DNA of 64,000 nucleotides, taken from Planctomycetota bacterium (lineage in GTDB: Bacteria > Planctomycetota > J058). Location of the stretch: positions 15,825 through 79,824 of the forward strand of contig RFHU01000219.1 of NCBI GenBank assembly GCA_003695705.1, in the 5' to 3' direction. The position numbers and the translations under genes are program-made. The notes under the pieces are model-generated. The model was not told the origin of the DNA and did not search any database. It saw only the letters and a list, made by a program, of their open reading frames with translations. Of the stretch, positions 14,724 through 34,153 are shown piece by piece (the first letter of the stretch is position 1; the number at the start of each line of letters is the position of its first letter).

Positions 14724-16682
14724 TCAGCGCAGCTCGGACACAGGGCGGGTGCCGCGAGCGGAGAGGAGGAAATCGACCAGTCGGCCCAATTCCTCGTCGG
14801 AGCAAGCCACCTCGCTCAGCGCGGGCATGCGGGCCGGCCAGGAGCCGCCGGCGAGGGACGCCTCCGGCCGCGGAGCGCGGAGGAAGCGCGCCAGCGCCTC
14901 ACCGGCCTCCTCGGTCGAGCCGTAGCGCGTCAAGTAGCGCTCGCCCACCCCAACGAGCGACGGACCGTTGCCGCGCCCGTCATCGCGGTGGCAGGCGAAG
15001 CACCCTAGGCGCCCCCGCGCCAGTTCCCAGCCCCGTGCCGCGCGGGGGGGCAGAGGCGGCGGATCCGGTGGATGCCGCTCGGGTCCCAGGGGAACCGCGC
15101 GGGTCACGCGGAGCCGAGCGCCGCCGCCCAGCGCCAGTCGGTCGCGCGCGGCGCTCAAGGCGACGATGGCCAGGGCCGGGGCGAGGCCCGGTGCGTCTTC
15201 GTGCATCAGGGGGGATCGACTCCGAAAGATGCCCCCGCTGCGCCCGAAGAGGTCGCCCAGGGCGCGCACGAGGGAGGCGGCCCAGCGGTCGACCCCACCC
15301 CTCGCTCCCAGAACCTCCCATACGCCCGCGCGGTGGAAGGCCTCGGCCCAGGCAGCCAGGTAGTAGAAGTAGAGGCCCTCGCGCCAGCCCGAACCTTCGG
15401 GGAAGCCGGGTACGTCCGCGAAGGAGATGCGAGCCGCGAGCCAGCGCAGAGCGGCCCGGACGCGGGGGTCCTCGGGCAACGCCGCATCCTTTCGCGTGCG
15501 CCGGTCCACTCCCCGGACGGCGAGGAGTCCGAGGAGCCCGTCGGCGGTGGCGGTGCCGTAGGAACGACCGACGAGCAAGTCCTGCCCCAGCTCGCTGGCG
15601 CCCGCCTTGCCGGAGCGAGGTGTGAAGCAGAAGCCCCCGTCGCGGAGAGAGCGCTCGGTCGCCCGCAAGGGGTCGCCTGGCGCGGTGATGAAGGAGAAGT
15701 TCTGCAGCTCGTCGAGGAACAGGGCCGCGCGTCCCCAGGCTGGGTGCTCCGCGGGAAGCTCCGCAGCCGCCAGGCCGAGCAGAGCGAAGCGAGCGGTGGA
15801 CACGTCGGCCCGCAGGGGTGCGCCGTCTCCGTCGTAGTAGGGCCAGCCTCCGTAGCGCGGGTCGATGGGATCGTAACCGCCTTCTTCCTGCACCTGAGCC
15901 CTCGTGAGCCAGCGGCCGAGGCCGGCGAGGATCCGCGCGTTGCCGCTGGGCAGTTCGGCGAGGGCGCAGGCATAGAGCGCGCTGGCGTAGACACGGTGCG
16001 GCACGAGCTGGCTCGGGTCTTCCAGACCGCCGTCGGGACCGAGGTGCCTTTCGAGGACGAGCAAGGTCGAGTGGAGCTCCTCGCGCCCGATCTCGTCGAG
16101 GTCTTCGCGTGCGCGCGCGAGTGCGTAGGCCGCGAGCGCCGTCACCGCGACCGAAGGGCGATCCGGGTTCTGGTAGTGGGGCCAGAGCCCGTCCGGGCGC
16201 CTCGCGTCGATGAGCTGTTCGGCGGCCTTGCGGATCAGGTCCCGCGCGAAGGCCTGCTCGTAGCCCGCGCCGTCCTCGAAGCGCACCACGACGGTTTCGA
16301 CCGCGCCACCCTCGCGGCGGACCTCGAGGGTCAACACCTCGCCGTCTTGCAGAGCGGCCAAGCGCGCGAGCAGGGGGCGCGGGTCACGGATGGGGTTCCC
16401 CTCCACGCGGACGATGGCATCGCCTGGGCGAAGCCCCGCCCGCTCTCCGGAGCCCCCAGGGAGGACGGCCACCACGCGCACCCCCTCCCCTTCCCCAGGC
16501 TGGACCTGAATCCCCAGGCTGCGCCGAGGGGGCGGGGCGCGTTCGGGGAGAGGCGCCGCGGGTCGGCTGGCCGGTCCCCCGCTTCCTCGCCAGGTCGCAG
16601 GCGGGGTTCTCCACAGCCACACCGCGAGCCCCGCGGCGAGCGCGACCGCGAGCAGCGCCGCGACGGGCCCGGCGGACTTCAC
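14724..16682 (-). CDS. Membrane-anchored PDZ domain + alpha/alpha-toroid (prenyltransferase / terpene-cyclase-like) repeats + C-terminal mono-heme cytochrome c
   Basis: The 1058-aa track ORF is split. The GTG at 16682 overlaps the upstream TGA. An N-terminal hydrophobic anchor is followed by a PDZ-like block (GIQVQP...GLRPGDAIVRVEG). Q-x-x-D/G-G-W type repeats follow (RRPDGLWPHYQNPD, GPDGGLEDPSQ, GGWPYYDGDGAP, RDGGFCFTPRSG). The C-terminus carries CFACHRDDG (CxxCH). Confidence 0.65.
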   Translation of the reverse strand: MKSAGPVAALLAVALAAGLAVWLWRTPPATWRGSGGPASRPAAPLPERAPPPRRSLGIQVQPGEGEGVRVVAVLPGGSGERAGLRPGDAIVRVEGNPIRDPRPLLARLAALQDGEVLTLEVRREGGAVETVVVRFEDGAGYEQAFARDLIRKAAEQLIDARRPDGLWPHYQNPDRPSVAVTALAAYALARAREDLDEIGREELHSTLLVLERHLGPDGGLEDPSQLVPHRVYASALYACALAELPSGNARILAGLGRWLTRAQVQEEGGYDPIDPRYGGWPYYDGDGAPLRADVSTARFALLGLAAAELPAEHPAWGRAALFLDELQNFSFITAPGDPLRATERSLRDGGFCFTPRSGKAGASELGQDLLVGRSYGTATADGLLGLLAVRGVDRRTRKDAALPEDPRVRAALRWLAARISFADVPGFPEGSGWREGLYFYYLAAWAEAFHRAGVWEVLGARGGVDRWAASLVRALGDLFGRSGGIFRSRSPLMHEDAPGLAPALAIVALSAARDRLALGGGARLRVTRAVPLGPERHPPDPPPLPPRAARGWELARGRLGCFACHRDDGRGNGPSLVGVGERYLTRYGSTEEAGEALARFLRAPRPEASLAGGSWPARMPALSEVACSDEELGRLVDFLLSARGTRPVSELR

Positions 16683-17926
16683 GGTCGCTCCCAGCGCAGG
16701 CTGCGTTCGATGGCCTGCGCCTGCTCTCCGTAGGGGGAGCCGGGGGCGCGGAGCACCAGGAGCGAGATCACGCGCCGCCCACCCGGAGGAAAGAGGAAGC
16801 GCTGCACTGCCTGGACCGAGCGACCGGACACTCGGGCGCGGAATTCGAGGCGGAGGCCGCGGTCGGGCGTGCGCTCGCTGGAGAGGCGCTTGTAGCCTTG
16901 CCAGGTCTCCCAGGCCGACACTTCGACGGCTCGGGCCAGGGCGTCCGGGTCTTCGAGATCGGGGCGCTCTTCGGCGCGGAGCCGGACCTCGAGGCCGTCG
17001 GTCGCGAAGCCCAGGCGCTCGCCGGGGTCGGTGGTCGGATGCAGGCGCGCACCGGCGGGCACCAGCACCGAGACCCCCAGCAGGCTGCGAAAGCGTTGCC
17101 CAGGCTCGGGCCGGCTCTCGGGCTGCGCGAGGGGGCCCGCGCGCCAGTCCGTGAGGCTCCCCAGCTCGGGGAGGAGGCTCCGCAGTTCCTCGGCGACGGC
17201 TTCGACTTCCGCCGCGGGACCGGGCGCGGCGGCGTTCGGGTCGAAGGCGGTCGCCCAGACCTCGGCACGGGCGCGGAGGAGCGGGACGAGGCGCAAGAGG
17301 AGCTCGGCGATCCGGGGCCGCGGCGGGAGGAGCAGGCGGCGCTGGTAGGTGGCGAGGTCCATGCGCGCCATGCGCAGGACGGCCTCCCAGCCAGGAAGGA
17401 AGCGTTCGTCGAAGCGTTCGCGCATCTCGCCTCGCCGAGCGGGAGTCCGCTCGGCCACGGCCCGATGCCAGCGACCGCGCCGCTCGAGAGCCGCGGCCAG
17501 ATCGCGGAAGCGACGTGCGGCGACCAGGTACCAGCGGTGCATGCGCTGCGCGGCTGCGCGCGCTTCTTCGGGGTTCCCCAGGGCGAACTCGACTCGCTCG
17601 AGCGGCTCTTCGGTGCCGGGCGCGGTCACTTCGAGGACGTAGCGTCCGGGCAAGAGGAGTCGCGCGGTCCGCAGCAACACCTCGCCTCGTCCGTCCGCGG
17701 TGAGAGCGAAGGGGGTTTCCAGCGCGGTCCGCTCTCCGCGCCGCAGGCGCGCGCGCAGCTCGCGACCCGAGAAGTCGGGCAGGCGCGCTTCGCTGCGCAG
17801 GGTCGCCAGGCCGTGCGTTCGCTCCACCCGCGGCGGCTCCAGCGGCGCGGCCCGAGCCTCGGTTTCGGCCGTTGCGGCGAGAGCCGCCGGGATCAGACAA
17901 AGCAGGGCGCGCCGAGGTCCCCTCAC
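16679..17926 (-). CDS. Secreted hypothetical protein (about 415 aa), co-transcribed with the PDZ-toroid-cytochrome c gene
   Basis: GTG start. The signal peptide is RRALLCLIPAALAATAETEA. No recognisable domain was found. It is translationally coupled to the downstream gene. Confidence 0.45.
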   Translation of the reverse strand: MRGPRRALLCLIPAALAATAETEARAAPLEPPRVERTHGLATLRSEARLPDFSGRELRARLRRGERTALETPFALTADGRGEVLLRTARLLLPGRYVLEVTAPGTEEPLERVEFALGNPEEARAAAQRMHRWYLVAARRFRDLAAALERRGRWHRAVAERTPARRGEMRERFDERFLPGWEAVLRMARMDLATYQRRLLLPPRPRIAELLLRLVPLLRARAEVWATAFDPNAAAPGPAAEVEAVAEELRSLLPELGSLTDWRAGPLAQPESRPEPGQRFRSLLGVSVLVPAGARLHPTTDPGERLGFATDGLEVRLRAEERPDLEDPDALARAVEVSAWETWQGYKRLSSERTPDRGLRLEFRARVSGRSVQAVQRFLFPPGGRRVISLLVLRAPGSPYGEQAQAIERSLRWERP

Positions 17927-18157
17927 TTCCCTCACGCTACTCCGCGCCTCGCTCACGGTCCATACGCCCGGCACGCGGTGCACGCGGCGCGTGTCCTCGC
18001 GACGCCCGCCCACCGGCTCGTCCCCTGCGCGCAGAGGGCCCCCTCGCGGGCGCCGACGGACGGCTTGCCCGGCCGCGCGGTCGGCAGTCGGCCCTTCGCC
18101 CGGATCGTGTCGGCTCGGGGGGGCAGGCGCCGGACGGGGCGGGGCACCACCGCCGCT

Positions 18158-19123
18158 TCAGGCGTCGTCGGCAGGGCCCGGGCGCCAACCGTCCTCGGTC
18201 CACACACCCTCCTCCAGCGCGTCTTCGACCCGGTCCTGCTCTGCGAGCTCGCGGCGGAGACGACGGGTCACGACGACGTGCCGCGCGAAGGCCACGAGCG
18301 CCAACAGCGCCATGACGCTCCACACGTCGAGGCTGAAGAGCAAGGTCCGGAAGGTGCTGTGCTCGGCCTTCAGCTCTTCGACCCACTCCATCTCCGCCTC
18401 GAGCGCGTCGCGCCCGAGCACGACGCGGAAGGCCGCGTTGGTATCGGCGCTGCGGGCGAGCGCGTCGACGAGGTCGGCGAGCGCCGCCCGCTCGCCGAGC
18501 CAGCACACGAAGGCCATGCTCTGGGTGTAGGCTCGCCCCGAGGCCTGACCGTGATCTGGGAACCGCGCGGCCAGCTCTCCAAAGGGCTTCAGCTCCCCGA
18601 AGCGCGCCCAGCCCGTGAGCGCAGACGCTTCCTCGCCGGTGGGGGTGCGCCCTGCAGCCCATTCGGCGAGTCCTTCGTTGAGCCAACGCTCCAGGCGCCG
18701 TCCGCGCCGACGCTCGACCTCGCCCAAGACGAGGTGGGCGAGTTCGTGGCCAAGGGTCCGCTCGAGGCCCGCGTCGGTTCCTTCGCGCAAGCCGCTGCGG
18801 CGAATGACGACGAGGTCTCGCGCGGGGAAAGCCATGGCCAGCACGTAGGGCGCCGGTGGTGTGCCGGCGATCCCCTCCACCCGGCGGGCGAACTCCCGAT
18901 CGTTGGGCGCCAGGACGACGTGCGGTCGCGCAGGCAGCCCTCGCCCAAGGCGGCTCTCCACCGAGGCGCGTGCGCGGCCGAGAATGCGCACCACCCGCGC
19001 CGCCACTCCAGCGTCGCTGGGGAGGTGCTCCACCACGACGCCGGGAGATGCGCGAAGCACGTAGCCCTCCTCCTGTCCTGCAACTGCGGCCGGAAGGAGC
19101 AGGGCGAGCGTCAGCACCTCGAC
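18158..19123 (-). CDS. Putative zinc metalloprotease-like protein (HExxH...E) with a C-terminal TM helix
   Basis: It has a signal peptide and the motif GHELAHLV plus a downstream NEGLAEW (zincin-like). The C-terminal hydrophobic helix is WSVMALLALVAFA. The start is placed at the GTG after the actin-like gene. Confidence 0.45.
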   Translation of the reverse strand, partial: VEVLTLALLLPAAVAGQEEGYVLRASPGVVVEHLPSDAGVAARVVRILGRARASVESRLGRGLPARPHVVLAPNDREFARRVEGIAGTPPAPYVLAMAFPARDLVVIRRSGLREGTDAGLERTLGHELAHLVLGEVERRRGRRLERWLNEGLAEWAAGRTPTGEEASALTGWARFGELKPFGELAARFPDHGQASGRAYTQSMAFVCWLGERAALADLVDALARSADTNAAFRVVLGRDALEAEMEWVEELKAEHSTFRTLLFSLDVWSVMALLALVAFARHVVVTRRLRRELAEQDRVEDALEEGVWTEDGWRPGPADDA

Positions 19124-19187
19124 ACAAGAACGCCGCCGGCGTGCAGGGCGACGGCGGCGTTCGGGGACTCGGCGCAACGGGCGCAGG

Positions 19188-20252
19188 CTACTCGGGGTTG
19201 TCGGCGTCGGCGGCTGCGGCCACCAGCGCCCCGCGCGCGCAGGATGTGAGTGGGTCGTCGGCGCGACGAATCTCCTTGATGGGGATGGGGAACTGCATCC
19301 TGCTGAACTCGTCGCGGACGACGTCGATGAACCCACCGATCTTGCTGGTCCCGCCGGCGAAGACGATGTCGACCGGATCGGGGAACTGCGGCATGTCCTC
19401 GGAGGTCTCGAAGCGGTTCTTGATCTCGGTGAGGGTGTAGCGGATCAGTTCGCGGTAGTAGAGGTCGATGGCCTGCTCCTCGCGGGTCCGAGGGTTGCGC
19501 AGATCCACTCCCTTCTCCTTGAGGGCCGTCGCGCGGGAAGCCTTGATCCCGAGGACCTTGGCCACGTTGCGGTCGATCCAGTCGCCGCCGCGCGCGGTGG
19601 AAAAGGAGAGGGCCGGCAGGGTCTTGTAGGCCACGCACACGTTGAACATGCCGCCGCCGCAGGAGATGCCGATGCCCGTGAAGTCGTCCTCGTCCAGTTC
19701 GGCGAAGACGATGCAGTGGCCTTCGAGGATGTCCTTGGGGTTGTAGCCCAGCTTGCGCAAGAGGTCGTTGAAGATGCCCTTGTGGTAGACGACGTTCATT
19801 TCGAAGTCGATGGGGTCGGCGGGCACCGAGTAGTAGACGACCTCGTTGGGCACGGCCGGGGGGCCGAGGAGGCGGTCGACGAGCAGCTTCTCGATGGGCA
19901 GCGCGTCGGCCTCCTTGGGGGAGAGCATGCCGTCGGACATGGGGCGACGGGTCTCTCGGTTGTAGATGTTCGCCAGATCGAAGGCCGGGTCGCCGACGAC
20001 GATCATCTTGTTGTTGAGGATGACGTACTGCACGTCCATCTTCGTGAGCATGTTGCGCGTGAAGTCGTTCTGCTCGATGTCGATGAACGCGTTGCGCTGC
20101 ACCTTGATGATTACGTTGCCGTCGTAGTCCTGGACGGCCGCCAGCAGGTTGGCGGTCCCCACGTCCAGCCCCTTCCCCGGGCGCAAGCGAGGCTGGGAAG
20201 TCGATCGCGGGGCAGAGCCGGTCCCGAAATCGATGCTGGGCTTGTCGGTCAT
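19188..20252 (-). CDS. Divergent actin-fold (ASKHA) ATPase, MreB-like motifs
   Basis: The ATG at 20252 has GGAGGA 10 nt upstream; the track TTG is at 20270. The motifs are phosphate-1 LDVGTANLLAAV, phosphate-2 GISCGGGMFNVCV and adenosine IVFAGGTSKIGGF. Composition is I/N/K/F/Y-rich, atypical for the window. Confidence 0.6.
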   Translation of the reverse strand: MTDKPSIDFGTGSAPRSTSQPRLRPGKGLDVGTANLLAAVQDYDGNVIIKVQRNAFIDIEQNDFTRNMLTKMDVQYVILNNKMIVVGDPAFDLANIYNRETRRPMSDGMLSPKEADALPIEKLLVDRLLGPPAVPNEVVYYSVPADPIDFEMNVVYHKGIFNDLLRKLGYNPKDILEGHCIVFAELDEDDFTGIGISCGGGMFNVCVAYKTLPALSFSTARGGDWIDRNVAKVLGIKASRATALKEKGVDLRNPRTREEQAIDLYYRELIRYTLTEIKNRFETSEDMPQFPDPVDIVFAGGTSKIGGFIDVVRDEFSRMQFPIPIKEIRRADDPLTSCARGALVAAAADADNPE

Positions 20253-20543
20253 TGAGCGTTCGTCCTCCAAGAACCGGGGACCCTTCCCCTGGCGAGCACC
20301 GAGCTTACCGGAAGTTCGCCCCGTGTCTACCGGGGCTGGGTCATCGCGCGCCGCGCCCGGTCGGCGCGGTCGACTTCGCAGCGGAGACGCCTTTGCCGGG
20401 TCGTTTCGTCCGGTGCTTGCGCGTCCGATGGCACGCGACTCGTTCGCGCGCTCGGGCGGAGCTCTTGCGCTTCGCCGACCGCGACCCGGGCGCCGAGTTC
20501 GCGTGCGCCCGCCGACCGCATCGCCGGCGCTGCCCGCGGTCGC

Positions 20544-21641
20544 CTACTGCTTGCGCAGGTTGCGGAGCTTGGCCAGCTTCCCGGAGACGCTGGCGGCCTT
20601 CTGCTCCTTGACCTTGACGTCGGCCATGTTCGTTTCGAGCGTCCCCGCCTCTTCGAGCATGGTGCTGAAGAGCGCAGAGGCTTGCTCGGCGGTAAGGTCC
20701 ATGCCTTCGCCGCCCTTGCCGGCCGTCGCCTTGCGAACCGCGTCGCTGATGTTCTGCTGCAGCTTGGCGAACTGCTTGGAGAGGTCGGGCGCTTCCGCGG
20801 TTCCCGCGCCGGCGCGCCGCGCCTCCACGAGGGAGTTTGCAATCCCCGCCAGCATTTCCTGCATGCGGGCCTGGTTCTGCTCGAATTCCATGCGCATGCG
20901 CTGCATTTCGGCTTGGGTGTTCGGGTCGATCCCACCACCCCCCTTGCCTGCGTTGGCGCGCGCCTCCTCGAGTTCACGGCGGAGACGCTCGTTCTCCTCT
21001 TCGAGGGCGCGCACCTGCCCCTTGGCTCGGCTCAGCGCGGCGTTGTCCTCTTCGAGCTGCCGGATCTGCTTGCGGTAGCGCTCGACGTCGTTCTCGAGGT
21101 CTTCGAGCTGCACTGCGTAGCGCTTGCGGACCGCCTCGTATTCCTCTCGGGACACGCCGCCCTCGGCTTTGGAGAGCCGCTCGCGCAAGTCGGCGATCTG
21201 GGCCTCGTAGTTCTGGGCCGCGACGCGCTGCCCCTCGAGGCTCTTCTCCATGAGGGCTTGCTTGTCGCGCTGGAAGGCCTGCTTCTCCGCCTCGAGCTTC
21301 TGCTTCTCGGCCGCGAGCTGCGCATTTACTTCCTGGAGTTTGGCTTGCAGGTTTTGGTGCGCCTGTTGGATCTTCTTGTGCTCCGCCATCTGGCGGTCGA
21401 AGTCCGCGCGGGCCTCCTGGAGGATGCGCTGCCGCTCCTGCTCGCTCATGCCCCCGCGAGGGGTCTTCGCGAGGACGTTTTGGACGGCCTTCATGATGAG
21501 CTGGTTGATGTCGCCAGCTCGGAGGACCTTGACCTGCCGGAAGCCCTTCTTCTCGAGGTCTCGGAGGCTGACCTTGGAAGTGCTCTTCTCGATGACCTTG
21601 CGGACGTCGAGGACTTCCTGCTTGAGGTCCTGTTCCTGCAT
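20544..21641 (-). CDS. Long coiled-coil protein (366 aa, Q/E/K/R-rich heptads)
   Basis: ATG start. There is a short globular N-terminus (VKVLRAGDINQLIMKAVQNVL) followed by a continuous predicted coiled coil. It lies directly upstream of, and on the same strand as, the actin-like gene. Confidence 0.6.
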   Translation of the reverse strand: MQEQDLKQEVLDVRKVIEKSTSKVSLRDLEKKGFRQVKVLRAGDINQLIMKAVQNVLAKTPRGGMSEQERQRILQEARADFDRQMAEHKKIQQAHQNLQAKLQEVNAQLAAEKQKLEAEKQAFQRDKQALMEKSLEGQRVAAQNYEAQIADLRERLSKAEGGVSREEYEAVRKRYAVQLEDLENDVERYRKQIRQLEEDNAALSRAKGQVRALEEENERLRRELEEARANAGKGGGGIDPNTQAEMQRMRMEFEQNQARMQEMLAGIANSLVEARRAGAGTAEAPDLSKQFAKLQQNISDAVRKATAGKGGEGMDLTAEQASALFSTMLEEAGTLETNMADVKVKEQKAASVSGKLAKLRNLRKQ

Positions 21642-21743
21642 TGTCGTCCTTGGGCGTAAGCCTAAGAGACGGTACACCTTCGTGTACGGCGGGTCAACCG
21701 GGAAATGGCCTCTGCCCGGCCCCGTCGCGGACGTGGGCTCCGT

Positions 21744-23396
21744 TCAGCGTCGGCGGCTCCGCCGCGCGGAGCCCGCGTCCGCGACCTGGTGCTGCCGTGC
21801 GCCCCCGGGCTTCGCCGCGAGGCCCTTTCCGTGGGCGCGCCGGTAGCGATAGTAGATTTCCAGGGTCAGGACGTTCATGGCCGTAGCGTAGACCCGCCCG
21901 CCGCTCTTGCACCACTCGCCCACCGGGTCCCAGGACCCTCGTTCGCAGCCCCGCTCGCGCTGATGCGGTTCGATGGCCTGGCGCATGGCTGCGTTCCACG
22001 ACGCCCACTTGCGGTCGTCTCCGAAGTGGAACATGGCGTAGGTGCCGTAGTACCAATAGTAGAAGTTGACCGTCCGCTCCCCCCAGGCCGGCGGTCGCTG
22101 GGCGAGGAGGCGGACGCCCCGCCGCAGCCGGTCCTCGGCGGGGCGTTGTCCCGCGAACAAGCGGCAGAGAACCCCGACCGCGGTCAGGGTCGGCTGCTCC
22201 TCGAAGCGCCCTTCGTTCCCGCCGAGGACCGAGGAGCCCCCTCCGGGCGTCATGTAGCCGACGGCTCCGTCGCTGGAGGTCGCCCGGTCGATCCAGGCCA
22301 GCGCGCCCGCAAAGGCCTCGTCGGGGACCTCGAGGCCGGCCACGCGCGCCGCCTTGAGGGCCAGGACCATCCAGCCCGTGACCGACGTGTCGTTGCGCCC
22401 GTCGCGGACGCCGTAGCGCCAGCCGAGGCCCGGATTCCGTGCGGCGAGGACGAAGGCCACCGCCCGCTCGGCCGGGCGCCAAAGGCTGGGGAGGCGTGTG
22501 AGGCCGTAGGCCTCGGCGAGCGCCATGGTCGCAGTGGCCTGCTGGTAGGCCCCCGCGTGACCGCCCTCCACGAAGCCCACCGAGCCGTCCGCACGCTGCT
22601 GGCGGCGCAGCCAGCGCATGCCCCGGCGCACCACGCGCTTGAAGGGACCGAAGCGCGGAGTGTTGCCCTGGCCCATGAAGGCGAGCAGCGCGAGGCTTGT
22701 GAGCCCTACGTCGACGTTGGGCGCACCGAGGTTGTCGCCGGGGCCGGCGCACGTGGGACCCCGCGAGCAGTTCGCCGTCCACCCGTCCGAGTCCCAGCGC
22801 CCGTCGGGGCTCTGGTGGGCCGCCAGCCAGCGCAGGCCCTCTTCGGTCCGCCGGACCGTCTCGGGCGAGCCGCCGAAGCGACTCGCCCGGCCCATGCCGT
22901 CGCGTCGTCCGTAGCGCCCGGCGGACTCGCCCGGGCCCACACCGAAGGTGTCGACGAAAGCGTGCGCGTCGAGGCGCTTGTTCGAGGCGTGGTCCGGCTC
23001 GCCCTTGGGAGGCTCGGGGGTGGGCGGCTCGTCGAGCAGGTCCACCACGGGTTCGTCGGCCTCGGGGACAGGAACTTCGATGTGCGTCTCCTCTGCGAGC
23101 TTGGCGTCGTCTCGCGGCTGCGGACGAGGGCGGGGCGGCTTGATGGCCAAGGTGCGCACTTCCTCGCGGGCCGGAACGGCGATCGCGATGGTCATGAGTA
23201 CCAAGAGGAGTCCACCGTGTGCGACCAACGAGACTCCGTAGGAGGTGCCGAACACGGCGAGGACCCGCTGCCGCAAGCCCGCGCGAGGTTCTTCGCCCCA
23301 CGCCCCGTCCTTCTCGCCGCCGGGGTCGTCTTCGTAGTAGTCGTCCGCCCGGCCCCCGAATGGTTCGCCGGCTCGGGATCGGTTTCGTCCGCTCAT
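21744..23396 (-). CDS. Membrane-anchored alpha/alpha-toroid (prenyltransferase / squalene-cyclase-like) repeat protein, paralog A
   Basis: ATG at 23396. The acidic cytoplasmic tail is ADDYYEDDPGGE. One TM helix (LLLVLMTIAIAV) and a Pro-rich linker follow. Repeats include HQSPDGRWDSDGW, RQQRADGSVGF, NPGLGWRYGVRDGRNDTSVTGWMVLAL and NFYYWYYGTYAMF. It is a clear paralog of 23875..25443. Confidence 0.7.
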   Translation of the reverse strand: MSGRNRSRAGEPFGGRADDYYEDDPGGEKDGAWGEEPRAGLRQRVLAVFGTSYGVSLVAHGGLLLVLMTIAIAVPAREEVRTLAIKPPRPRPQPRDDAKLAEETHIEVPVPEADEPVVDLLDEPPTPEPPKGEPDHASNKRLDAHAFVDTFGVGPGESAGRYGRRDGMGRASRFGGSPETVRRTEEGLRWLAAHQSPDGRWDSDGWTANCSRGPTCAGPGDNLGAPNVDVGLTSLALLAFMGQGNTPRFGPFKRVVRRGMRWLRRQQRADGSVGFVEGGHAGAYQQATATMALAEAYGLTRLPSLWRPAERAVAFVLAARNPGLGWRYGVRDGRNDTSVTGWMVLALKAARVAGLEVPDEAFAGALAWIDRATSSDGAVGYMTPGGGSSVLGGNEGRFEEQPTLTAVGVLCRLFAGQRPAEDRLRRGVRLLAQRPPAWGERTVNFYYWYYGTYAMFHFGDDRKWASWNAAMRQAIEPHQRERGCERGSWDPVGEWCKSGGRVYATAMNVLTLEIYYRYRRAHGKGLAAKPGGARQHQVADAGSARRSRRR

Positions 23397-23412
23397 TCGG
23401 GCCTCCGGGGAG

Positions 23413-23484
23413 CGCAATTGCGATTTCGTCACGCGCTTCAGCTTCTCTACCGAGGAGGCCCTTGTTGAGTTCCTGGCAATTGCC
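23413..23484. promoter_or_regulatory. Two perfect 10-bp palindromes sharing the core GCAATTGC (CGCAATTGCG at 23413-23422, GGCAATTGCC at 23475-23484), 62 bp apart, in the 5' region of paralog A
   Basis: Read directly from the sequence. They lie 17 to 88 bp upstream of the ATG at 23396. Candidate operator pair. Confidence 0.4.
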
Positions 23485-23817
23485 GAAACGGCCAGAGCCG
23501 GGGTGGGTCCTGCGCAACCTCTTCGGCTGCAGTGCCTTCTGCGCGGAGGGCGCTGTGGCGGGGGCGCCGCGACTCCGTTCGGTCGGGGGGCCGGGCGGTC
23601 AGACCTCGCGGCGAAGCCGCCCGGCCCCGCCAGCGGTCCGTTGCGGAGGGCAGCGATCCCTGCGGTCGCGGGGTTGCAGAAGTGCCTCGCCCCTCGTTCG
23701 GGCTTCTTGGCCGCCGCGCCGGATCGGTCCCGGTACCGAGCGACGCAGCGGCCGGGCAGGGCTGGGCGGGGGCTTGGTTGCGCCCCTGGGCAGGTGCGGG
23801 CCTTCCCTACGAGAGAC

Positions 23818-23850
23818 GCCCGAGCCCCCGCCTTGGGGCGGGGCTCGGGC
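23818..23850 (-). terminator. GC-rich hairpin GCCCGAGCCCCCGCC-ttgg-GGCGGGGCTCGGGC after paralog B (intrinsic-terminator candidate, no U-tract)
   Basis: It is a 14-bp stem with one bulge and a 4-nt loop. It begins 25 nt downstream of the paralog B stop on the minus strand. Confidence 0.4.
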
Positions 23851-23874
23851 GTTCTCCCTCCGGCTCCCAGCGCC

Positions 23875-25443
23875 TCAGTGGGCCTGAGCGCGCTCGTAGC
23901 GGTAGTAGATCTCCAGGGTGAGCGCGTTGATGGCGGTGGCGTAGACCCGTCCGCCGGCAAGGCACCACTCGCCCACCGGATCCCACGAGCCGTCCTCGCA
24001 GCCTCCCATGCGCTGGTTGGGCAAGAGGGCTTCCTGCATGGACTTGTTCCAGGCCTTCCACTTCTCCCCGCCCACCTGGAACATGGCGTAGGTGCCGTAG
24101 TACCAGTAGTAGAAGTTGACCGTCCGGTAGTTGGTCCCCTTCCAGGTCGGCGGGTTCTCGCTGAGGATGCGGGCGCCCTTGCGGATCCCGTCCTCGGAGC
24201 GTCGCTCCCCCGTGAAGATCCGACAGATGACCGAGACGCCGGTCATGCACTGGCTCGGATCGTACTTGCCGTCGTTTTGCGGAAGGAAGGCCGATCCGCC
24301 CCCGGGGGTTTCGTAGCCGACCTCGCCGCTGGCGGCGGTGGCGCGCGCGAACCAGTTGCGCGCCCCCTCGAAGGCCTTGTCGGGGACCTTGATGCCCGCG
24401 GTCTTCCCGGCCTTGAGCGCGAGGACCATCCACCCGGTCACCGAGGTGTCGTTGCGTCCGGAGCGGACGCCGTACTTCCAGCCGAGGCCGGGGTTTTGCG
24501 CCTCGACGCAGAATTTGATCGCCTTTTCTGCGTAGCGCTTGAGGGTGAAGTCGCGGGAGACCGCGTAGGCTTCGCAGATGGCCATGGTGGCGATGGCGTG
24601 GTTGTAGATGGTCTCGCCGTGGTCGAAGCCGATGGACCCGTCGGCCTTCTGCTGGCGCTTGAGCCACTTCAGCCCGCGGCTCACGGTGCGCTTGAAGGTG
24701 CCGAAGCGGTGGGTGTGCCCATTGCCCAGGAAGGCCAGCAGCGCCATGCCCGAGAGGCCCACGTCGTAGCGGGCGTCACCAAGGTTCGTCCCCGGGCCCG
24801 AGCAGGTGGGTCCGCGGGAGCAATTGGCCGTCCACCCGTCCGCGTCCCAGCGTCCGTCGGGGCTCTGGTGGAACTTGAGCCAGCGGAGCGCCGCGGTCAC
24901 CGCGCTCTCCGTGCCTTCGCTGCCGCCCTCGCGCGCCAGCGACCCCTTGCCCCAGCGCTGGCCGTAGGCGCCGGCGGCCCCGCCGCCCACGCCGTAGGCA
25001 TCCACCACCGAGGTGGAATCCAGGTTCTTGTTCGAGAGGTTGCTGAGGTCGGTGCCCTTGGGGACGTCCTTGGTGACCTCCACCTCCTCCTCGAGGACGA
25101 TGATCGGCTTTTCGACCACCTCCTCGGCCTGGATCTTGGGGGTCTTGTGCATGTCCCGCTTGAGCTTCTCGTCGTATTCCTGGGGCTTGACCTCGCGCTT
25201 GGCGATGACCACCGCCTCCTTCTCGGGCTCCGGGACGGCGATGATGATGGTCATCAGGATGAGGAGCAGCCCGATGTGGACGGCCGCCGAGATGCCGTAG
25301 GCCGAACAGGCCACGGCGATCAGCCGGTTGCGGAGCTGCTCCTTGGTCTGGATGTCGAACTCGTCCTCGTCCTGGAATTCGCCATCGTCTTCGTAGTATT
25401 CGTCGTCGTAGCCCACGGGCGCCTCCCGCTGCGTCGCTGGCAA
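23875..25443 (-). CDS. Membrane-anchored alpha/alpha-toroid (prenyltransferase / squalene-cyclase-like) repeat protein, paralog B
   Basis: Probable TTG start at 25443. The acidic tail is YDDEYYEDDGEFQDEDEF. One TM helix is present. The repeat blocks are the same as in paralog A (HQSPDGRWDADGW, RQQKADGSIGF, NFYYWYYGTYAMF). The composition is K-rich and lower in GC than the rest of the window. Confidence 0.7.
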   Translation of the reverse strand: MPATQREAPVGYDDEYYEDDGEFQDEDEFDIQTKEQLRNRLIAVACSAYGISAAVHIGLLLILMTIIIAVPEPEKEAVVIAKREVKPQEYDEKLKRDMHKTPKIQAEEVVEKPIIVLEEEVEVTKDVPKGTDLSNLSNKNLDSTSVVDAYGVGGGAAGAYGQRWGKGSLAREGGSEGTESAVTAALRWLKFHQSPDGRWDADGWTANCSRGPTCSGPGTNLGDARYDVGLSGMALLAFLGNGHTHRFGTFKRTVSRGLKWLKRQQKADGSIGFDHGETIYNHAIATMAICEAYAVSRDFTLKRYAEKAIKFCVEAQNPGLGWKYGVRSGRNDTSVTGWMVLALKAGKTAGIKVPDKAFEGARNWFARATAASGEVGYETPGGGSAFLPQNDGKYDPSQCMTGVSVICRIFTGERRSEDGIRKGARILSENPPTWKGTNYRTVNFYYWYYGTYAMFQVGGEKWKAWNKSMQEALLPNQRMGGCEDGSWDPVGEWCLAGGRVYATAINALTLEIYYRYERAQAH

Positions 25444-25494
25444 TTCGTCGACCCGGCCTCCGTCGCGGCCTTCGCCAACGCGCTGCTCCGTAGG

Positions 25495-25522
25495 AGGATA
25501 GATGTTCTTGCGAAAATGTCAA
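25495..25522 (-). promoter_or_regulatory. Sigma70-like promoter TTGACA-N16-TATCCT for paralog B, in a local AT-rich patch
   Basis: On the minus strand the -35 TTGACA is at 25517-25522 and the -10 TATCCT at 25495-25500, with a 16-nt spacer. This lies about 50 nt upstream of the TTG start. Surrounding DNA is otherwise very GC-rich. Confidence 0.4.
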
Positions 25523-25660
25523 GCTCCTGCCGGTGGGCCGCGGGGGCATTCGGTGGGGTTGTGACACAAGCGGTACAGTGCCACTGGGAGGGGACTGCGG
25601 CGGGCCTCGCTTGCGCTTTTCGCAACGAGACGCACCCCGGTCGTCCGAGCGCGGGTTCGC

Positions 25661-26674
25661 TCAACGGAGGAAGATCTGCACGTGGGCGCGCCGACGCTGC
25701 TCGGCGATCCAGGCGTCGAGGCGTTGTCGCCAGATGCCTTCCTTGAGTTCGGCTTCGATGGCCTCTTGGACTTCGGCGAGGGGCAAGAGGCCGGGCGGTC
25801 GGCGGGAGAGGACCTTGACGACGTGCAGCGAGCCCCGTGGGCTCTCGAGCACCTCGCTGACCTCGCCCACGCCGAGTTGCCGCACCGCCCGAGGGAGTGG
25901 CGGGACGAGGACGTCTTCGAGGCGCGTGTCGGTGTCGTAGCGTTCGTCCTCGTCCCAGTGCACCCCCATGGAGGTCTGCTCGGCGAGCGCGCGGAAGTCT
26001 TCGCCCGCCAGCGCGCGGCGACGCAGGTCTTCGGCCACCTTGCGCGCGTCCCACGCGTGCAGGGCTTTGGCGAGCCCGGGCGGGTCGCTCCGGTAGGCCT
26101 GGGAGGGGTCTGGGTAGAGCACGATCTGGCGCAGCCGGAGCTCACCCTTGGTGCGGAAGCGCTCCGGGTGGGCGCGGTAGTAGCGGCGAACCTCGGTGGG
26201 GGTGACGAAGATGTCGCGGCTGATGCTCTTGACGAGCAGCTTGCCGACCAAGATGTTCGCCTTCTGGCGCTCGACGAAGTAGTCGAAGGGAACGCCCAGC
26301 GTCGCTAGGTCCGCGCGCAGCCCTTCCACCCCTCGCGCGTCCCGCGCCCTCCGCTCGAGCTCCCACTGCAAGCGGGCCTCGTCGTTCTTGGTGAACTCGA
26401 TCTTCTCCTGCTTCGCACGCGCGAGGAGGACCTGCTGGCGGACGAGTTGTTCGAGCTCGTCGGCGAGGATGGCCCGCCGCTGGGCTTCGGTCTGCGCGCG
26501 CCGGTAGTCCGAGCGGAGCTGACAGGAAAGCTCCAGGGCGTGCCGCGTGATGGGTTCGCCTTCCACCACGGCGGCGATGCCGTCGGGATACTCGCGCGGC
26601 GACTCCTGGGCGAAGGCGCCCGCGGCGAGCAGGCCCACGCCGGCGAGCAGCAAAGGGCGGAGCGGAACGCTCAT
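25661..26674 (-). CDS. SurA/PrsA-family periplasmic chaperone / parvulin-type peptidyl-prolyl isomerase
   Basis: The signal peptide is LLLAGVGLLAAGAFAQE. A SurA_N-like helical domain is followed by a parvulin-like block (GELRLRQIVLY...DFRALAEQTS). Confidence 0.65.
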   Translation of the reverse strand: MSVPLRPLLLAGVGLLAAGAFAQESPREYPDGIAAVVEGEPITRHALELSCQLRSDYRRAQTEAQRRAILADELEQLVRQQVLLARAKQEKIEFTKNDEARLQWELERRARDARGVEGLRADLATLGVPFDYFVERQKANILVGKLLVKSISRDIFVTPTEVRRYYRAHPERFRTKGELRLRQIVLYPDPSQAYRSDPPGLAKALHAWDARKVAEDLRRRALAGEDFRALAEQTSMGVHWDEDERYDTDTRLEDVLVPPLPRAVRQLGVGEVSEVLESPRGSLHVVKVLSRRPPGLLPLAEVQEAIEAELKEGIWRQRLDAWIAEQRRRAHVQIFLR

Positions 26675-26823
26675 GCCGAAAAGCTAACTCCTCGGAGGGC
26701 TGTGGGAAACCGAGACCCGCGGCTCGACGCACCCGATCGCCCCAGGCGTCCACGAGGATTCCACAACCAGTTGAAAGCAAAGGAGCTGGAAGCGCGTCGG
26801 CCTGCTGGACTAGGATCTCGCGC

Positions 26824-29800
26824 ATGAGCCTGAAGCCGAGCGATTTCGTCCACCTCCACGTGCACTCCGACTACAGCCTCCTCGACGGCATGGCCAAGGT
26901 GAGCCGCCTGGCCTCGCGGGCGAAGGAGTGCGGCCAGACCGCGCTGGCCCTGACCGATCACGGGACGGTCTCGGGGGCGATGGCCTTCTACAAGGAGTGC
27001 AAGAAGAACGAGATCAAGCCGATCCTGGGTTGCGAGATCTACCTCTCGCGCGGGCCGATGCGCGAGCGGCGCAAGGGCTACAACCACCTCACGGTCCTCG
27101 CCAAGAACCAGCGCGGCTGGGAGAACCTGCGTAGGATCAGTTCGCTGGCCAACCTTGAGGGCTTCTACTATCGCCCGCGCGTGGACTTCGAGACCCTCGC
27201 CGCGAACAGCGAAGGCCTGGTGGTCCTCTCGGGCTGCCTCAAGGGTCCGGTCCCGGTGCTCCTGCAGCAGGACAAGTTCGAGGAGGCGCGCGCCGAGGCC
27301 GGCCGCTTCCGCGAGGTCTTCGGCGAAGACTTCTACCTCGAGGTGCAGCCCAACTCGCTCGCCGAGCAGGCCGTCGTCAACGACGGCTGCCTGCGGATCA
27401 TGAACGACCTGAGCATTCGGGCGGTCGCGACCTGCGACCTGCACTACATCGATCCCGCCGATGCTCCGGCGCAGGAAGTCCGCATTTGCATCAAGTCGGG
27501 GAAGACCCTCTCCGACAAGAACCGGCTGAAGATGAAGGACGACTTCTTCTTCCGCAGTTCCGAGCAGATGATCGACGCCTTCCGCCACTGCCCCGACGTC
27601 ATCACGGCCAGTCGAGACATCGCGGCTTGCGTCGAGGACTACGACCTGCTCCCCGGCAACCGCAACGAATACTACCTGCCGCGCTTCCAGACCCCCGACG
27701 GCAGCGACCCCGAGGCCTACTTCGACCGCATGTGCGAGCAGGGACTGCGCGAACGCTACGGAGAGCCCACCGCGGCCCAGCGCGAACGCCTCGAATACGA
27801 GAAGGGGGTCATCCGCAAACTCGGCTTCACCACCTACTTCCTCATCGTGGCCGACTTCATCGCGTGGGCGCGGGCCAACGGCTGCCCGGTCGGTCCCGGT
27901 CGCGGCTCCGCTGCGGGCTCGATCGTCGCCTACTGCCTGCGGATCACCGACATCGATCCGCTCCGCTACGACCTCCTCTTCGAGCGCTTCCTCAACCCCT
28001 CGCGTGTTTCCATGCCCGACATCGACGTCGACTTCTGCGAAGCCAACCGCGGGAGGGTCATCGAGTACGTGCGCAAGAAGTACGGCGAGGAGAACGTTTG
28101 TCAGATCGTCACCTTCGGGACCCTCAAGCCGAAGGCCGTGGTCAAGGACGTCGGCCGCGTGCTCGAAATCCCCTACGGGACCGTAGACAAGATCAGCAAG
28201 CTCATCCCCGAGGGGCCCAAGCTCAAGTCCCTCGAGCAAGCCTTTGCGGAGAGTCCGGAACTCGCCGCCCTCCGCGACGACCCCGCCTACCGAAAGCTCT
28301 TCGACTACGCCCTCCGGCTCGAGGGGATCAACCGCCACGAAGGAAAGCATGCCGCCGGCGTAGTGATCTCGGACATCGATCTCCTCGAGCGCATTCCCCT
28401 CACTCAGGTCAAGGGCGACAAGACCACGCAGTTCACCATGACCGAGGTCGAAGAGGCCGGCCTCCTCAAGATGGACTTCCTCGGGCTCCGAACCCTGACC
28501 CTCATCGAGGAGGCCCTTCGCCTGCTGCGCAAACGAGGCGTCGAGCTCGACATGAGCTCTCTGCCCCTCGACGACGCCGAGACCTTCGCCATGCTCTCCC
28601 GCGGCGACTCGCGCGGGGTGTTCCAGCTCGAGTCGAGCGGTTTTCGCAAACTGCTCAAGAAGGCCAAGCCCGATCGCTTCGAAGACATCATCGCCCTCAT
28701 CGCCCTCTATCGTCCGGGCCCACTCGGCTCCGGAATGGACGAGCAGTACATCAACCGCAAGCACGGGCGCGAACCCGTGACCTACCTGACCGATCTGCTC
28801 GCGCCGATCCTCGACGAGACCTACGGCTGCATCCTCTACCAAGAGCAGGTGATGCGGATCGCCAACCAGATCGCGGGGTTGTCGATGAGCGACGCCGACA
28901 ACCTGCGCAAGGCGATGGGCAAGAAGAAGATCGACCTGATGAACAAGTACAAGCCCATGTTCATCGAGGGCTTCGTGGCCAAGGGCGTGGACGCGAAGAT
29001 TGCGGAAGAGGTGTGGAGCCAGATCGCTTTCTTCGCCGAATACGGATTCAACAAGTCCCACTCGGCGGCCTACGGGCTGGTCACCTACCAGACGGCCTAC
29101 CTCAAGGCGCACCACCCGGCCGAATTCATGGCCGCCACCCTGACTTCCTGGATCAGCGACACCGACAAGATCCTCGAATACGCCGCCGAGATCGAGCGCA
29201 TGGGCCTCACCCTGCGTCCGCCCAACATCAACGAGAGCGACGTGACCTTCGACGTGCGCGACGGTGAGATCGTCTACGGTCTGGGCGCGATCAAGGGTCT
29301 CGGAGAAGGCGCTGCGCGCGCGATCGTAGAGACCCGCGAGAGCTTGGAGGGCAAGGCCTTTCGCTCCCTGTTCCACTTTGCCGAGGAGGTCGACTCCAAG
29401 GTCCTCAACCGCACGGCCTGCGAGGCCCTCATCAAGGCCGGCGCCTTCGACGCGCTTGGCTTCCGCCGCAGTCAGCTCGCTGCGGCTCTCGAGACGGCCT
29501 TGCAGATGGGGGTCCAGGCACAAAAGGACAAGCTCTCCAATCAAGTAAGCCTGTTCGCCGACCTCTCCGCACAGAACGAGGACCTCGACGGCATCGAGCG
29601 CGACCTGCTCCCAGACATTCCCGAGTGGCGCGACGCCGACCTCCTCAGCTACGAGAAGGAGGCGCTGGGCTTCTACCTGACCCGGCACCCCCTCGACGCC
29701 CACCGAGAGGCCCTCGCGCGCTTCGCCTCCCACGAGATCGGCAAACTGAGCGAGGAGAAGAACAAGGGTGAGGTCACCGTAGGGGGGTTGGTGGCCGCTG

Positions 29801-32977: not shown

Positions 32978-34150
32978 TCAGCTGGGAAGGGGCGGGGGCG
33001 CTCCGCCCGGCAGCGGCGGAGGAGCAGCGGGCGGAGCGAACAAGGCAGCCAGCTCGGGGACGTCCTTGGCGGGAGTCCAGTTGGGCATGCCCGCACGCCA
33101 CACCAGGGTTTCCGGCCGCAGCCGTCCTTGGCCGAGGAGGCCCCGCAGGGCGTTGAGATCGAAGGGGCCTTGCTGCGCGCCGCCGATGGCCGCGTGGAAG
33201 GTCGTCGAGGCGGGCAAGGGCGGCGGAGCCACGGCGGTCGGAGCCGGTCCCGGCGGGGCGCCGTAGCCCGGTGCGGGTTGCGCGAACGCGGGTTGCATGG
33301 CCCCGGCCATCATTTGGGGCATCATCATGCCCATGCCCATGCCGAGGCCCGCGCCCATGACGCCGCCCGGCTGGCCGGGGTTCTTGGCGGCGTCTCCCAA
33401 GGCATTGGCGGCCATCATCTGCATGTAGCCGGCGCCGCCGGGGCCAATGCCCAGCGCGCCCATGGAAGAGCGCGCGTTGATGGCCTTCTTGACCTCTTCG
33501 GGGAGGCTGATGGACGAGACGATGAAGTCGTAGAGCTCGATGCCGTATTTCGAGAGGTCGTCGGCGCTGCGGGCCTTGAGCGCGACGCCGAGCTCGTCTC
33601 GCTTTGCCTGCAAGTCGAGGACGCTCTTGTCTGCCATGTACTCGGAGAGCAGGTCCGCGAAGCGTCCAACGAGGACGTCCTTGAACCAGCGCCCGATTTC
33701 GTCGGCGTCCTTGCGGTCTTCGCCGACCACCACGGTCTGCAGGAAGACCCCGGGGTTGGTAATGCGCACCGAATACTTGCCGAAGGCGCGCACGTTGACG
33801 TAGCCGAACTCCTTGTCGCGGAGGAGGATCGCTTCTTTGGTCCCCCACTTCAGGTCGCGGAAGGGCTTGAGGCTGACGAAGTAGACCGCCGACTGGAAGG
33901 GCGCGTCCTGATAGAGGAGGTTGAAGGCCCGCGAGAGGATGGGCACGTTTTCGGTGGTCAGCGTGTGGCTGCCCGCCCGCATCGTGTCCATGGCCTTGCC
34001 GTTGTGGTAGAAGACCGCCGCTTGGCCCTCCTGGACGATGACCCGGGCGCCGAGTTTGATCCTCCCCATGCCCTGCTCGGGGACGCGCTGGACCATGGTC
34101 CGACCGCCGCTGCGGTCTTCCCACTTGATGACTTCGAGGCGTTCGCTCAT
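32978..34150 (-). CDS. SPFH (band-7)-domain protein with a Gly/Met/Pro-rich linker and a C-terminal DUF4339/GYF-like domain
   Basis: An SPFH-like N-terminal 250 aa is followed by a low-complexity linker (GAGLGMGMGMMMPQMMAGAM). The C-terminus is FDLNALRGLLGQGRLRPETLVWRAGMPNWTPAKDVPEL. Confidence 0.65.
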   Translation of the reverse strand: MSERLEVIKWEDRSGGRTMVQRVPEQGMGRIKLGARVIVQEGQAAVFYHNGKAMDTMRAGSHTLTTENVPILSRAFNLLYQDAPFQSAVYFVSLKPFRDLKWGTKEAILLRDKEFGYVNVRAFGKYSVRITNPGVFLQTVVVGEDRKDADEIGRWFKDVLVGRFADLLSEYMADKSVLDLQAKRDELGVALKARSADDLSKYGIELYDFIVSSISLPEEVKKAINARSSMGALGIGPGGAGYMQMMAANALGDAAKNPGQPGGVMGAGLGMGMGMMMPQMMAGAMQPAFAQPAPGYGAPPGPAPTAVAPPPLPASTTFHAAIGGAQQGPFDLNALRGLLGQGRLRPETLVWRAGMPNWTPAKDVPELAALFAPPAAPPPLPGGAPPPLPS

Positions 34151-34153
34151 CGA

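Follow-up and report, generated by a model that had tools for sequence, protein, structure and literature searches.

Volactin (VolA, HVO_2015) of Haloferax volcanii, the sole volactin studied so far, forms dynamic filaments across the cytoplasm, the tips of which touch the membrane, and it promotes the rod-to-disk transition (PMC10869688). Here we describe a set of three bacterial genes that code for a volactin-family actin-like ATPase, a coiled-coil partner and an HExxH metallopeptidase-like membrane protein. The set is found in a 64,000-nucleotide (nt) stretch of contig RFHU01000219.1 from a Planctomycetota bacterium, hereafter called the window. We found no description of Planctomycetota volactin homologues or of this trio in the literature searched, which did not extend to most subscription journals.

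Actin homologues encoded beside small or coiled-coil partners are also found in the crenactin/arcadin and ParM/ParR systems, and the C-terminal peptide of ParR and of arcadin-2 binds the filament. A 32-residue C-terminal motif of the planctomycetal coiled-coil protein might act similarly. There is no sequence relationship between those systems and the locus described here, which is devoid of centromere-like repeats and is chromosomal and widespread in Planctomycetota, not plasmid-borne. The MreB/RodZ system represents the same concept, namely a cytoplasmic actin-like filament for which a single-pass membrane protein provides the coupling to an enzyme outside the cytoplasm, but no RodZ or MreCD is present in our case and the enzyme is a predicted HExxH peptidase. 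In the MamK/MamJ type of system, MamK is the nearest solved structure to the window protein, both by sequence and by Foldseek. For MamK and Mad28 of magnetotactic bacteria, an actin-like filament with acidic or coiled-coil (Mad) adaptors is reported (PMC12748827). The window system shares this logic of a filament with an acidic or coiled-coil adaptor, although the adaptor families are unrelated and magnetosome genes are absent.

Saltatorellin, a second, MamK-like actin known from the Saltatorellus group, assembles into filaments upon expression in Escherichia coli (bioRxiv 10.1101/817700). It resembles the window protein in its high-GC, Planctomycetota-related hosts, and the window protein also appears 'MamK-like' to older tools. 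Of the saltatorellin termini implied by the published primers (MTDITTD... and ...YWEQLK), the window protein shares only 'MTD', and its C-terminus differs. These termini are absent from all proteins and loci collected in this work, and none of the 10 matches from a metagenome scan with the forward primer is actin-like.

The closest described relative is volactin itself, with a shared PF25216 family, a full-length match and the same nucleotide-binding motifs. In archaea and Planctomycetota alike, a dedicated gene is found directly upstream of the volactin gene on the same strand. However, the bacterial upstream partner is a soluble coiled-coil protein instead of a DUF7139 protein with four transmembrane helices, and an HExxH membrane protein is added downstream. 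The disk-shape morphogenesis of H. volcanii has no counterpart here.

A volactin-family actin in Planctomycetota

The GC content of the window is 69.6%, and raw lists of open reading frames (ORFs) are full of spurious frames. Genes were called using a frame plot of third-position GC (GC3) together with the translations. This picked out five co-oriented genes on the minus strand, in agreement with the initial annotation of the region, which had considered them a single module. The three that form the conserved set are as follows (aa, amino acids).

20544-21641, minus strand: coiled-coil partner, 365 aa
19188-20252, minus strand: Volactin-family actin-like ATPase (VolA-like), 354 aa
18158-19117, minus strand: HExxH metallopeptidase-like membrane protein, 319 aa

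The ATG at 20252 is the probable start of the actin gene and predicts a 354-aa protein; the longest ORF starts with a TTG at 20270 (360 aa). For the HExxH protein, the start first proposed at 19336 was set aside because an ORF from that position would overlap the actin gene. The GTG at 19117 is the most likely start, yielding a predicted 319-aa protein with a signal-peptide-like N-terminus, MLTLALLLPAAVAG; its homologues are 315-323 aa long.

Its profile match and motifs place the actin-like protein in the volactin family. The match to Pfam PF25216 (Volactin) reaches 286.3 bits (cut-off 35) with an E value of 4.8e-85, over positions 3-321 of the 321-position profile and residues 33-352 of the 360-aa ORF translation. 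A volactin-family protein encoded on pHMA411 of Haloarcula marismortui is 39% identical to it over 336 aa (E 5e-88) and itself scores 447 bits against PF25216, within the 437-466 bits spanned by haloarchaeal homologues. In total, five haloarchaeal plasmid matches were found at 38-39% identity, and these homologues are on megaplasmids. The phosphate-1, phosphate-2 and adenosine motifs (DVGTAN, GISCGGGM and AGGTS, respectively) are intact and invariant in 20 sequences, and they correspond in alignment to those of the haloarchaeal protein and to the motifs printed for Hv-volactin.

Among proteins with solved structures, the nearest sequences are those of MamK (E 5e-5). The AlphaFold model of the actin-like protein has a predicted local distance difference test (pLDDT) score of 71. 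In a Foldseek search with this model, MamK and MreB structures fill 18 of the 20 top matches, with an E value of 1e-12 for MamK, and a further one is an Mbl-YtxH model. BeeR ranks first by TM-score (0.65). EutJ appears at rank 19, Hsp70 is first seen at rank 28 and sugar kinases are absent from the top 50, so that the search favours filament formers over Hsp70-type nucleotide-binding domains (NBDs) or sugar kinases. The similarity to MreB is that of a general fold, with a TM-score of approximately 0.56 and 16-20% identity.

Membership of other actin families was probed similarly. Pfam MreB_Mbl gives no match at E <= 0.01, and mreC, mreD and rodZ are all absent from the neighbouring genes. The sole NCBIfam match is to MamK, at 23.1 bits for a cut-off of 400, and magnetosome genes are lacking. 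The Pfam FtsA/SHS2 match is partial and remains below threshold (20.8 bits versus 31.8). Some homologues carry the NCBI names 'volactin' or 'cell division protein FtsA', the latter label being unsupported by this Pfam analysis. As for a ParMRC-type locus, we found neither a centromere-like repeat array nor a DNA-binding domain in the coiled-coil protein, and a locus of the archaeal type would have a DUF7139 membrane protein gene, not a coiled-coil protein gene, upstream. The proposal of the initial annotation that this is a filament-type actin homologue and not a canonical MreB is thus supported and refined to a family.

The closest relatives of the protein (63-95% identity) belong to Planctomycetota wherever they are named. 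A pattern scan with one genome per species identified 399 genomes that encode a relative, and 452 clusters of a protein library clustered at 50% identity match it below 1e-30. The family itself is a known one; the actin adds a new member from bacteria, and its partner set is a new variant.

A conserved set of three genes

To characterize the genetic environment of these proteins, we used a synteny set of 81 loci, 80 of which came from the genome scan and one from a complete genome; nearly all are labelled Planctomycetota. Identity to the window actin is 55-95% across related loci. All-against-all clustering of the neighbouring ORFs was too noisy because of spurious high-GC ORFs, and targeted hidden Markov models (HMMs) were used instead. 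With the window coiled-coil protein as a tblastn query, a homologue was found directly upstream of the actin gene in 57 loci. With an HMM built from its first 100 residues, the number rose to 74 of the 81 loci, all on the same strand. Of the remaining seven, five could not be judged for want of upstream sequence, whereas in L008 and L079 such sequence is present but gives no match. The pairing of an actin with a coiled-coil gene, suspected from the window, is thus conserved across the phylum, and in five cases (P0125, P0143, P0149, P0181 and an ORF in L078) the coiled-coil N-domain is fused in frame to the actin.

In the nearer clade (L001-L056), the peptidase gene adjoins the actin gene downstream in 45 of the 50 evaluable loci, including two, L001 and L024, in which it is adjacent but on the opposite strand. 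The genes that flank the trio vary between lineages. As judged from gene order and profile matches, the conserved module is composed of three genes, coding for the coiled-coil protein, the actin and the peptidase, rather than five. The trio of the module first proposed therefore stands, and its gene order recurs in other genomes. In one subclade, a lipoprotein-like protein of ~235 aa is encoded just upstream of the coiled-coil gene (L001:8024-8731, with homologues in L021, L022, L024 and L038); it has no Pfam match and no homologue in the window.

The coiled-coil protein was described as such in the initial annotation, and its features agree with this: residues 62-239 are free of Pro and show heptad-like spacing, and a long helix is modelled at residues 67-129. 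A conserved N-domain (~100 aa) is followed by a ~170-aa coiled coil, which has Gly-rich linkers, and by a 32-aa C-terminal motif, LETNMADVKVKEQKAASVSGKLAKLRNLRKQ. Throughout the family the two ends are conserved and the coiled coil between them varies in length. The N-domain harbours the motif STSxVSLxDLxKKGFxxVKVL...LIxxAV, and the C-terminal motif reads LESNxxxVxVKExKAxGVxxxLxKLKxL. We found no match to the N-domain beyond generic coiled-coil noise, using Pfam on 37 members, a PDB profile search and Foldseek with the model. Two large protein searches for this family returned mostly short fragments without names or Pfam domains. The C-terminal motif is absent from all five N-domain::actin fusions, and we infer from this that docking on the actin is normally the role of this motif.

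The third protein has a Pfam Peptidase_MA_2 match just above threshold (34.4 bits for a cut-off of 32.4), which places it in the Peptidase MA clan. It carries HELAH followed by ...NEGLA, which provides the downstream Glu, within a conserved HELAHLVL...RWxxEGLA motif, and none of the 46 homologues lacks an intact HExxH. The window protein is made up of a signal-peptide-like N-terminus, the Peptidase_MA_2 domain and, at the C-terminal end, a transmembrane helix with a tail that is first basic and then acidic; such a helix and tail are present in all of the homologues. The basic run after that helix, RRRR in most homologues, places the tail in the cytoplasm. The protein is thus a putative single-pass membrane metallopeptidase with a predicted extracytoplasmic domain, in line with its earlier description as an HExxH protease-like protein, apart from the start codon.

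Other types of volactin loci

In the loci whose actin is at most 61% identical to that of the window, the peptidase gene is missing, and a second volactin paralog follows the actin gene in 17 of 25 cases. We analysed 12 of these long paralogs (in L059, L063, L067, L068, L072, L073, L075-L077 and L079-L081). They range from ~460 to 930 aa, most being ~650 aa long (e.g. L077:11085-13082), and all 12 have a conserved N-terminal extension. In six of them this extension matches the Pfam HTH_ParB signature of a helix-turn-helix (HTH) domain, with a best E value of 1.5e-6 (28.7 bits for a cut-off of 22.6). The fusion of a ParB-like DNA-binding domain to an actin homologue is unusual. The five C-terminal tails that we read are all Pro-rich and disordered, and four of them end with D(I/F/L)PLIS.

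Seven volactin proteins of ~470-750 aa (P0138, P0167, P0170, P0173, P0175, P0184 and P0187) harbour intein-like insertions that start with a Cys residue. The insertions end in HN followed by C in six cases and by S in P0173. They occupy three different conserved sites in the ATPase motifs, and some hold HNH- or LAGLIDADG-like endonuclease segments. To our knowledge, inteins have not been reported in an actin-fold protein.

In haloarchaeal megaplasmid loci, a protein of ~300 aa with four transmembrane helices is encoded just upstream of volactin on the same strand (L082:4797-5696, L083:4992-5915 and L084:4920-5828). It has an acidic tail and a 'SWGGVE' motif, and both of the copies scanned, of the three, match DUF7139. 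This protein is not homologous to the bacterial coiled-coil N-domain. It is a candidate membrane anchor for the tips of volactin filaments. In published proteomics tables of H. volcanii, HVO_2016, the neighbour of volactin, rises with volactin. The Halogeometricum locus also contains rdfA and an SMC-like gene within 6 kb.

Proposed function of the trio

The system is a chromosomally encoded three-gene actin set typical of Planctomycetota. On balance, we consider it somewhat more likely than not that its products form an ATP-driven filament of the volactin type, with the coiled-coil protein as its dedicated adaptor and the single-pass HExxH protein as its tie to the envelope. Using ATP, the actin would assemble into filaments in the cytoplasm. 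The coiled-coil protein would serve as a rod-like adaptor, with its C-terminal 32-residue motif docked on the filament and its N-domain engaging a target. The metallopeptidase would tie the system to the envelope, as a positioned envelope-remodelling enzyme or as a membrane anchor. Such an assembly may serve in envelope organisation related to cell shape, growth zones or division.

Several points weigh against this proposal. Polymerisation, binding by the two ends of the coiled-coil protein and contact with the peptidase tail are all predictions. The pLDDT score of the actin model indicates only moderate confidence. Distant loci swap the peptidase for a volactin paralog with a ParB-type HTH, which points to DNA and not to the envelope. 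The archaeal upstream partner is a different protein (DUF7139), so that a partner-based function cannot be transferred from archaea. Finally, co-transcription of the trio is not assured, given the 290-nt gap that precedes the actin gene and the hairpin that follows it (see below).

The principal alternative is a role in DNA positioning or segregation, as for ParM/ParR, Alp7A/Alp7R or salactin, in which the chromosome or nucleoid would be pushed or pulled by the filament, with the coiled-coil protein as adaptor to DNA or to a DNA-bound complex. The second volactin paralog of the 17 distant loci and the HTH_ParB matches described above argue for it, the pairing of an adaptor gene with an actin gene is reminiscent of par loci, and salactin, another haloarchaeal actin, helps DNA partitioning (PMC10869688). 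Nevertheless, domain searches revealed no DNA-binding domain in the three proteins of the trio, and the coiled-coil N-domain shows no relationship to the ParB-HTH extension of the long paralogs (hhalign probability 0.1%). No centromere-like repeat arrays surround the genes, which sit among chromosomal housekeeping genes, and the third conserved gene in the clade of the window codes for an extracytoplasmic peptidase. We consider this alternative unlikely for the window locus.

That the actin-fold protein might be a non-polymerising ATPase, chaperone-like or EutJ-like, that controls the neighbouring peptidase is suggested by the presence of EutJ and Hsp70 NBDs among the fold matches and by the FtsA name of some homologues, but this appears very improbable, since filament-forming MamK and MreB dominate the top fold matches, the founding volactin forms filaments in vivo (PMC10869688), the extreme conservation of the protein, far above that of its neighbours, suits a polymer with many interfaces, and the peptidase domain would be on the opposite side of the membrane.

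Toroid-repeat paralogs and transcription of the locus

The two remaining genes of the five-gene group, together with the putative transcription signals of the region, are as follows.

23875-25443, minus strand: toroid-repeat membrane protein A, 522 aa
21744-23402, minus strand: toroid-repeat membrane protein B, 552 aa, a paralog of A
25495-25522, minus strand: sigma-70-like promoter match (TTGACA, 16 nt, TATCCT), upstream of toroid A
23811-23858, minus strand: hairpin immediately 3' of the toroid A stop codon, at the start of the 472-nt gap
21724-21785, minus strand: long hairpin that spans the toroid B stop codon, upstream of the coiled-coil gene
19128-19162, minus strand: GC-rich hairpin followed by UUCUUGUGU, between the actin stop and the peptidase start, terminator- or attenuator-like

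The two proteins were first described as paralogous single-pass membrane proteins with toroid repeats, and our analyses support this. They are 54% identical over 517 aa, each has one strong N-terminal hydrophobic helix, and both weakly resemble the alpha/alpha-toroid repeats of squalene-hopene cyclases. Protein A consists of an acidic cytoplasmic N-terminus, a transmembrane helix (residues 51-69) and a periplasmic alpha/alpha-toroid domain; the acidic N-terminus is conserved in both paralogs. Protein A matches SQHop_cyclase_C (27.5 bits) and, in the PDB, a squalene-hopene cyclase (E 1e-5). The similarity is limited to the repeat region, and the TIGR01507 scores of the two paralogs (25.6 and 27.5 bits) remain far below the cut-off of 431 for a genuine cyclase.

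The initial annotation had considered the five genes as one envelope-associated scaffold system, in which the toroid proteins would be partners of the filament. This is consistent with the common orientation of the genes and with the acidic cytoplasmic N-terminus kept by both paralogs, and the JGI contig of P0001, L004 and, in part, L003 show this order as well. However, these three are the only loci in which the toroid genes adjoin the trio, and their actins are at least 91% identical to that of the window. Where the actin is at most 90% identical, the toroid genes are not beside the trio, despite 3.3-8.5 kb of upstream sequence in L005, L006 and L009. The gene order of the toroid pair is thus conserved in the closest relatives only.

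The spacing and predicted structures of the region also argue against a common operon. The genes had been described as separated by short gaps, which applies to two junctions, toroid B/coiled-coil (~66 nt) and actin/peptidase (~70 nt), and not to the coiled-coil/actin (~290 nt) and A/B (472 nt) junctions. Strong hairpins are predicted after both toroid genes: that after toroid A has a folding energy of -58.5 kcal/mol and a z-score of -4.0, and that at the end of toroid B, with arms of 26 nt that are 85% complementary, reaches -66.9 kcal/mol with a z-score of -4.5. The hairpin between the actin and peptidase genes has 14-nt arms with 93% complementarity and a fold z-score of -2.7, and it was flagged by the terminator scan. 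The promoter-like site before toroid A is the sole sigma-70-like match in 16500-27000, for 0.4 expected from shuffled sequences, and is a consensus match only. Because of the uneven gaps, the hairpins and this single promoter-like match, a single five-gene transcript cannot be assumed. We regard a five-gene scaffold operon as very doubtful; toroid A and B are probably outside the conserved module, as lineage-specific neighbours with their own transcripts. The A/B gap itself (23403-23874) is GC-rich and non-coding, with further inverted repeats (e.g. 23580-23598 with 23617-23635) and no Rfam match.

Composition and surrounding genes

The toroid A, coiled-coil and actin genes have GC contents of 0.64-0.67, compared with 0.70 for the window, and they code for proteins rich in K, N and I. 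Such a bias had been noted in the initial annotation for a 'paralog B', the coiled-coil gene and the actin-like gene, and taken to suggest horizontal acquisition or different selective constraints; by our values, the paralog concerned is that at 23875-25443. The drop in GC is confined to codon positions 1 and 2, and GC3 (0.87-0.93) is the same as or higher than that of neighbouring genes. The dnaE gene shows a similar pattern (GC 0.647, K/(K+R) 0.41). Horizontal acquisition was rejected on these grounds. The native GC3 and the resemblance to dnaE indicate that the K/N/I richness reflects strong protein-level constraint in a high-GC genome, not foreign DNA; the conservation of the actin agrees with this.

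The comparison with the counterparts in L004 illustrates this conservation. The actins are 91% identical and the toroid A proteins 78%, compared with 48-54% for toroid B (53%), the coiled-coil protein, the peptidase and the peptidyl-prolyl isomerase (PPIase). Toroid B differs from A in composition, with K/(K+R) of 0.14 versus 0.51 and GC of 0.725 versus 0.668, and is shifted towards R, A and G. It seems to have drifted under GC pressure since the duplication.

The genes that surround the five are ordinary chromosomal ones, coding for a SurA-like PPIase, DnaE, a glycerol-3-phosphate-oxidase-like DAO protein, GroEL, a Mur ligase and a Ser/Thr kinase. A scan with defence-system models gave nothing except a coiled-coil artefact, and an Rfam scan found zero families. 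The repeat search around the genes revealed no arrays, only two-copy repeats at chance level. Elsewhere in the window, at 32978-34153 on the minus strand, a gene unrelated to the actin system codes for an SPFH/Band-7 protein with a C-terminal GYF_2 domain.

Significance

Planctomycetota lack FtsZ, and how they are shaped, grow and divide is an open question. The trio represents a concrete candidate for these processes, with a conserved actin, a partner conserved at both ends and a membrane-protein partner. In a broader version of this proposal, a volactin-type actin, a coiled-coil adaptor and a membrane partner would constitute the core cytoskeletal machine of FtsZ-less Planctomycetota for division, budding or envelope growth, and would share its origin with haloarchaeal volactin, by descent or by ancient inter-domain transfer. 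We consider this version speculative and distinctly unlikely in its full extent. Should the system be a minor accessory, its description would still be a gain for annotation, in that it names a family of uncharacterised proteins and amends entries labelled 'FtsA' or 'hypothetical protein'. A further outcome is a link, at 39% identity, between a bacterial system and the sole volactin studied, which is archaeal. The family would thereby offer a comparison of one filament wired to different partners, namely a membrane protein in archaea, a coiled-coil protein and a peptidase in the clade of the window, and a ParB-HTH fusion in more distant loci.

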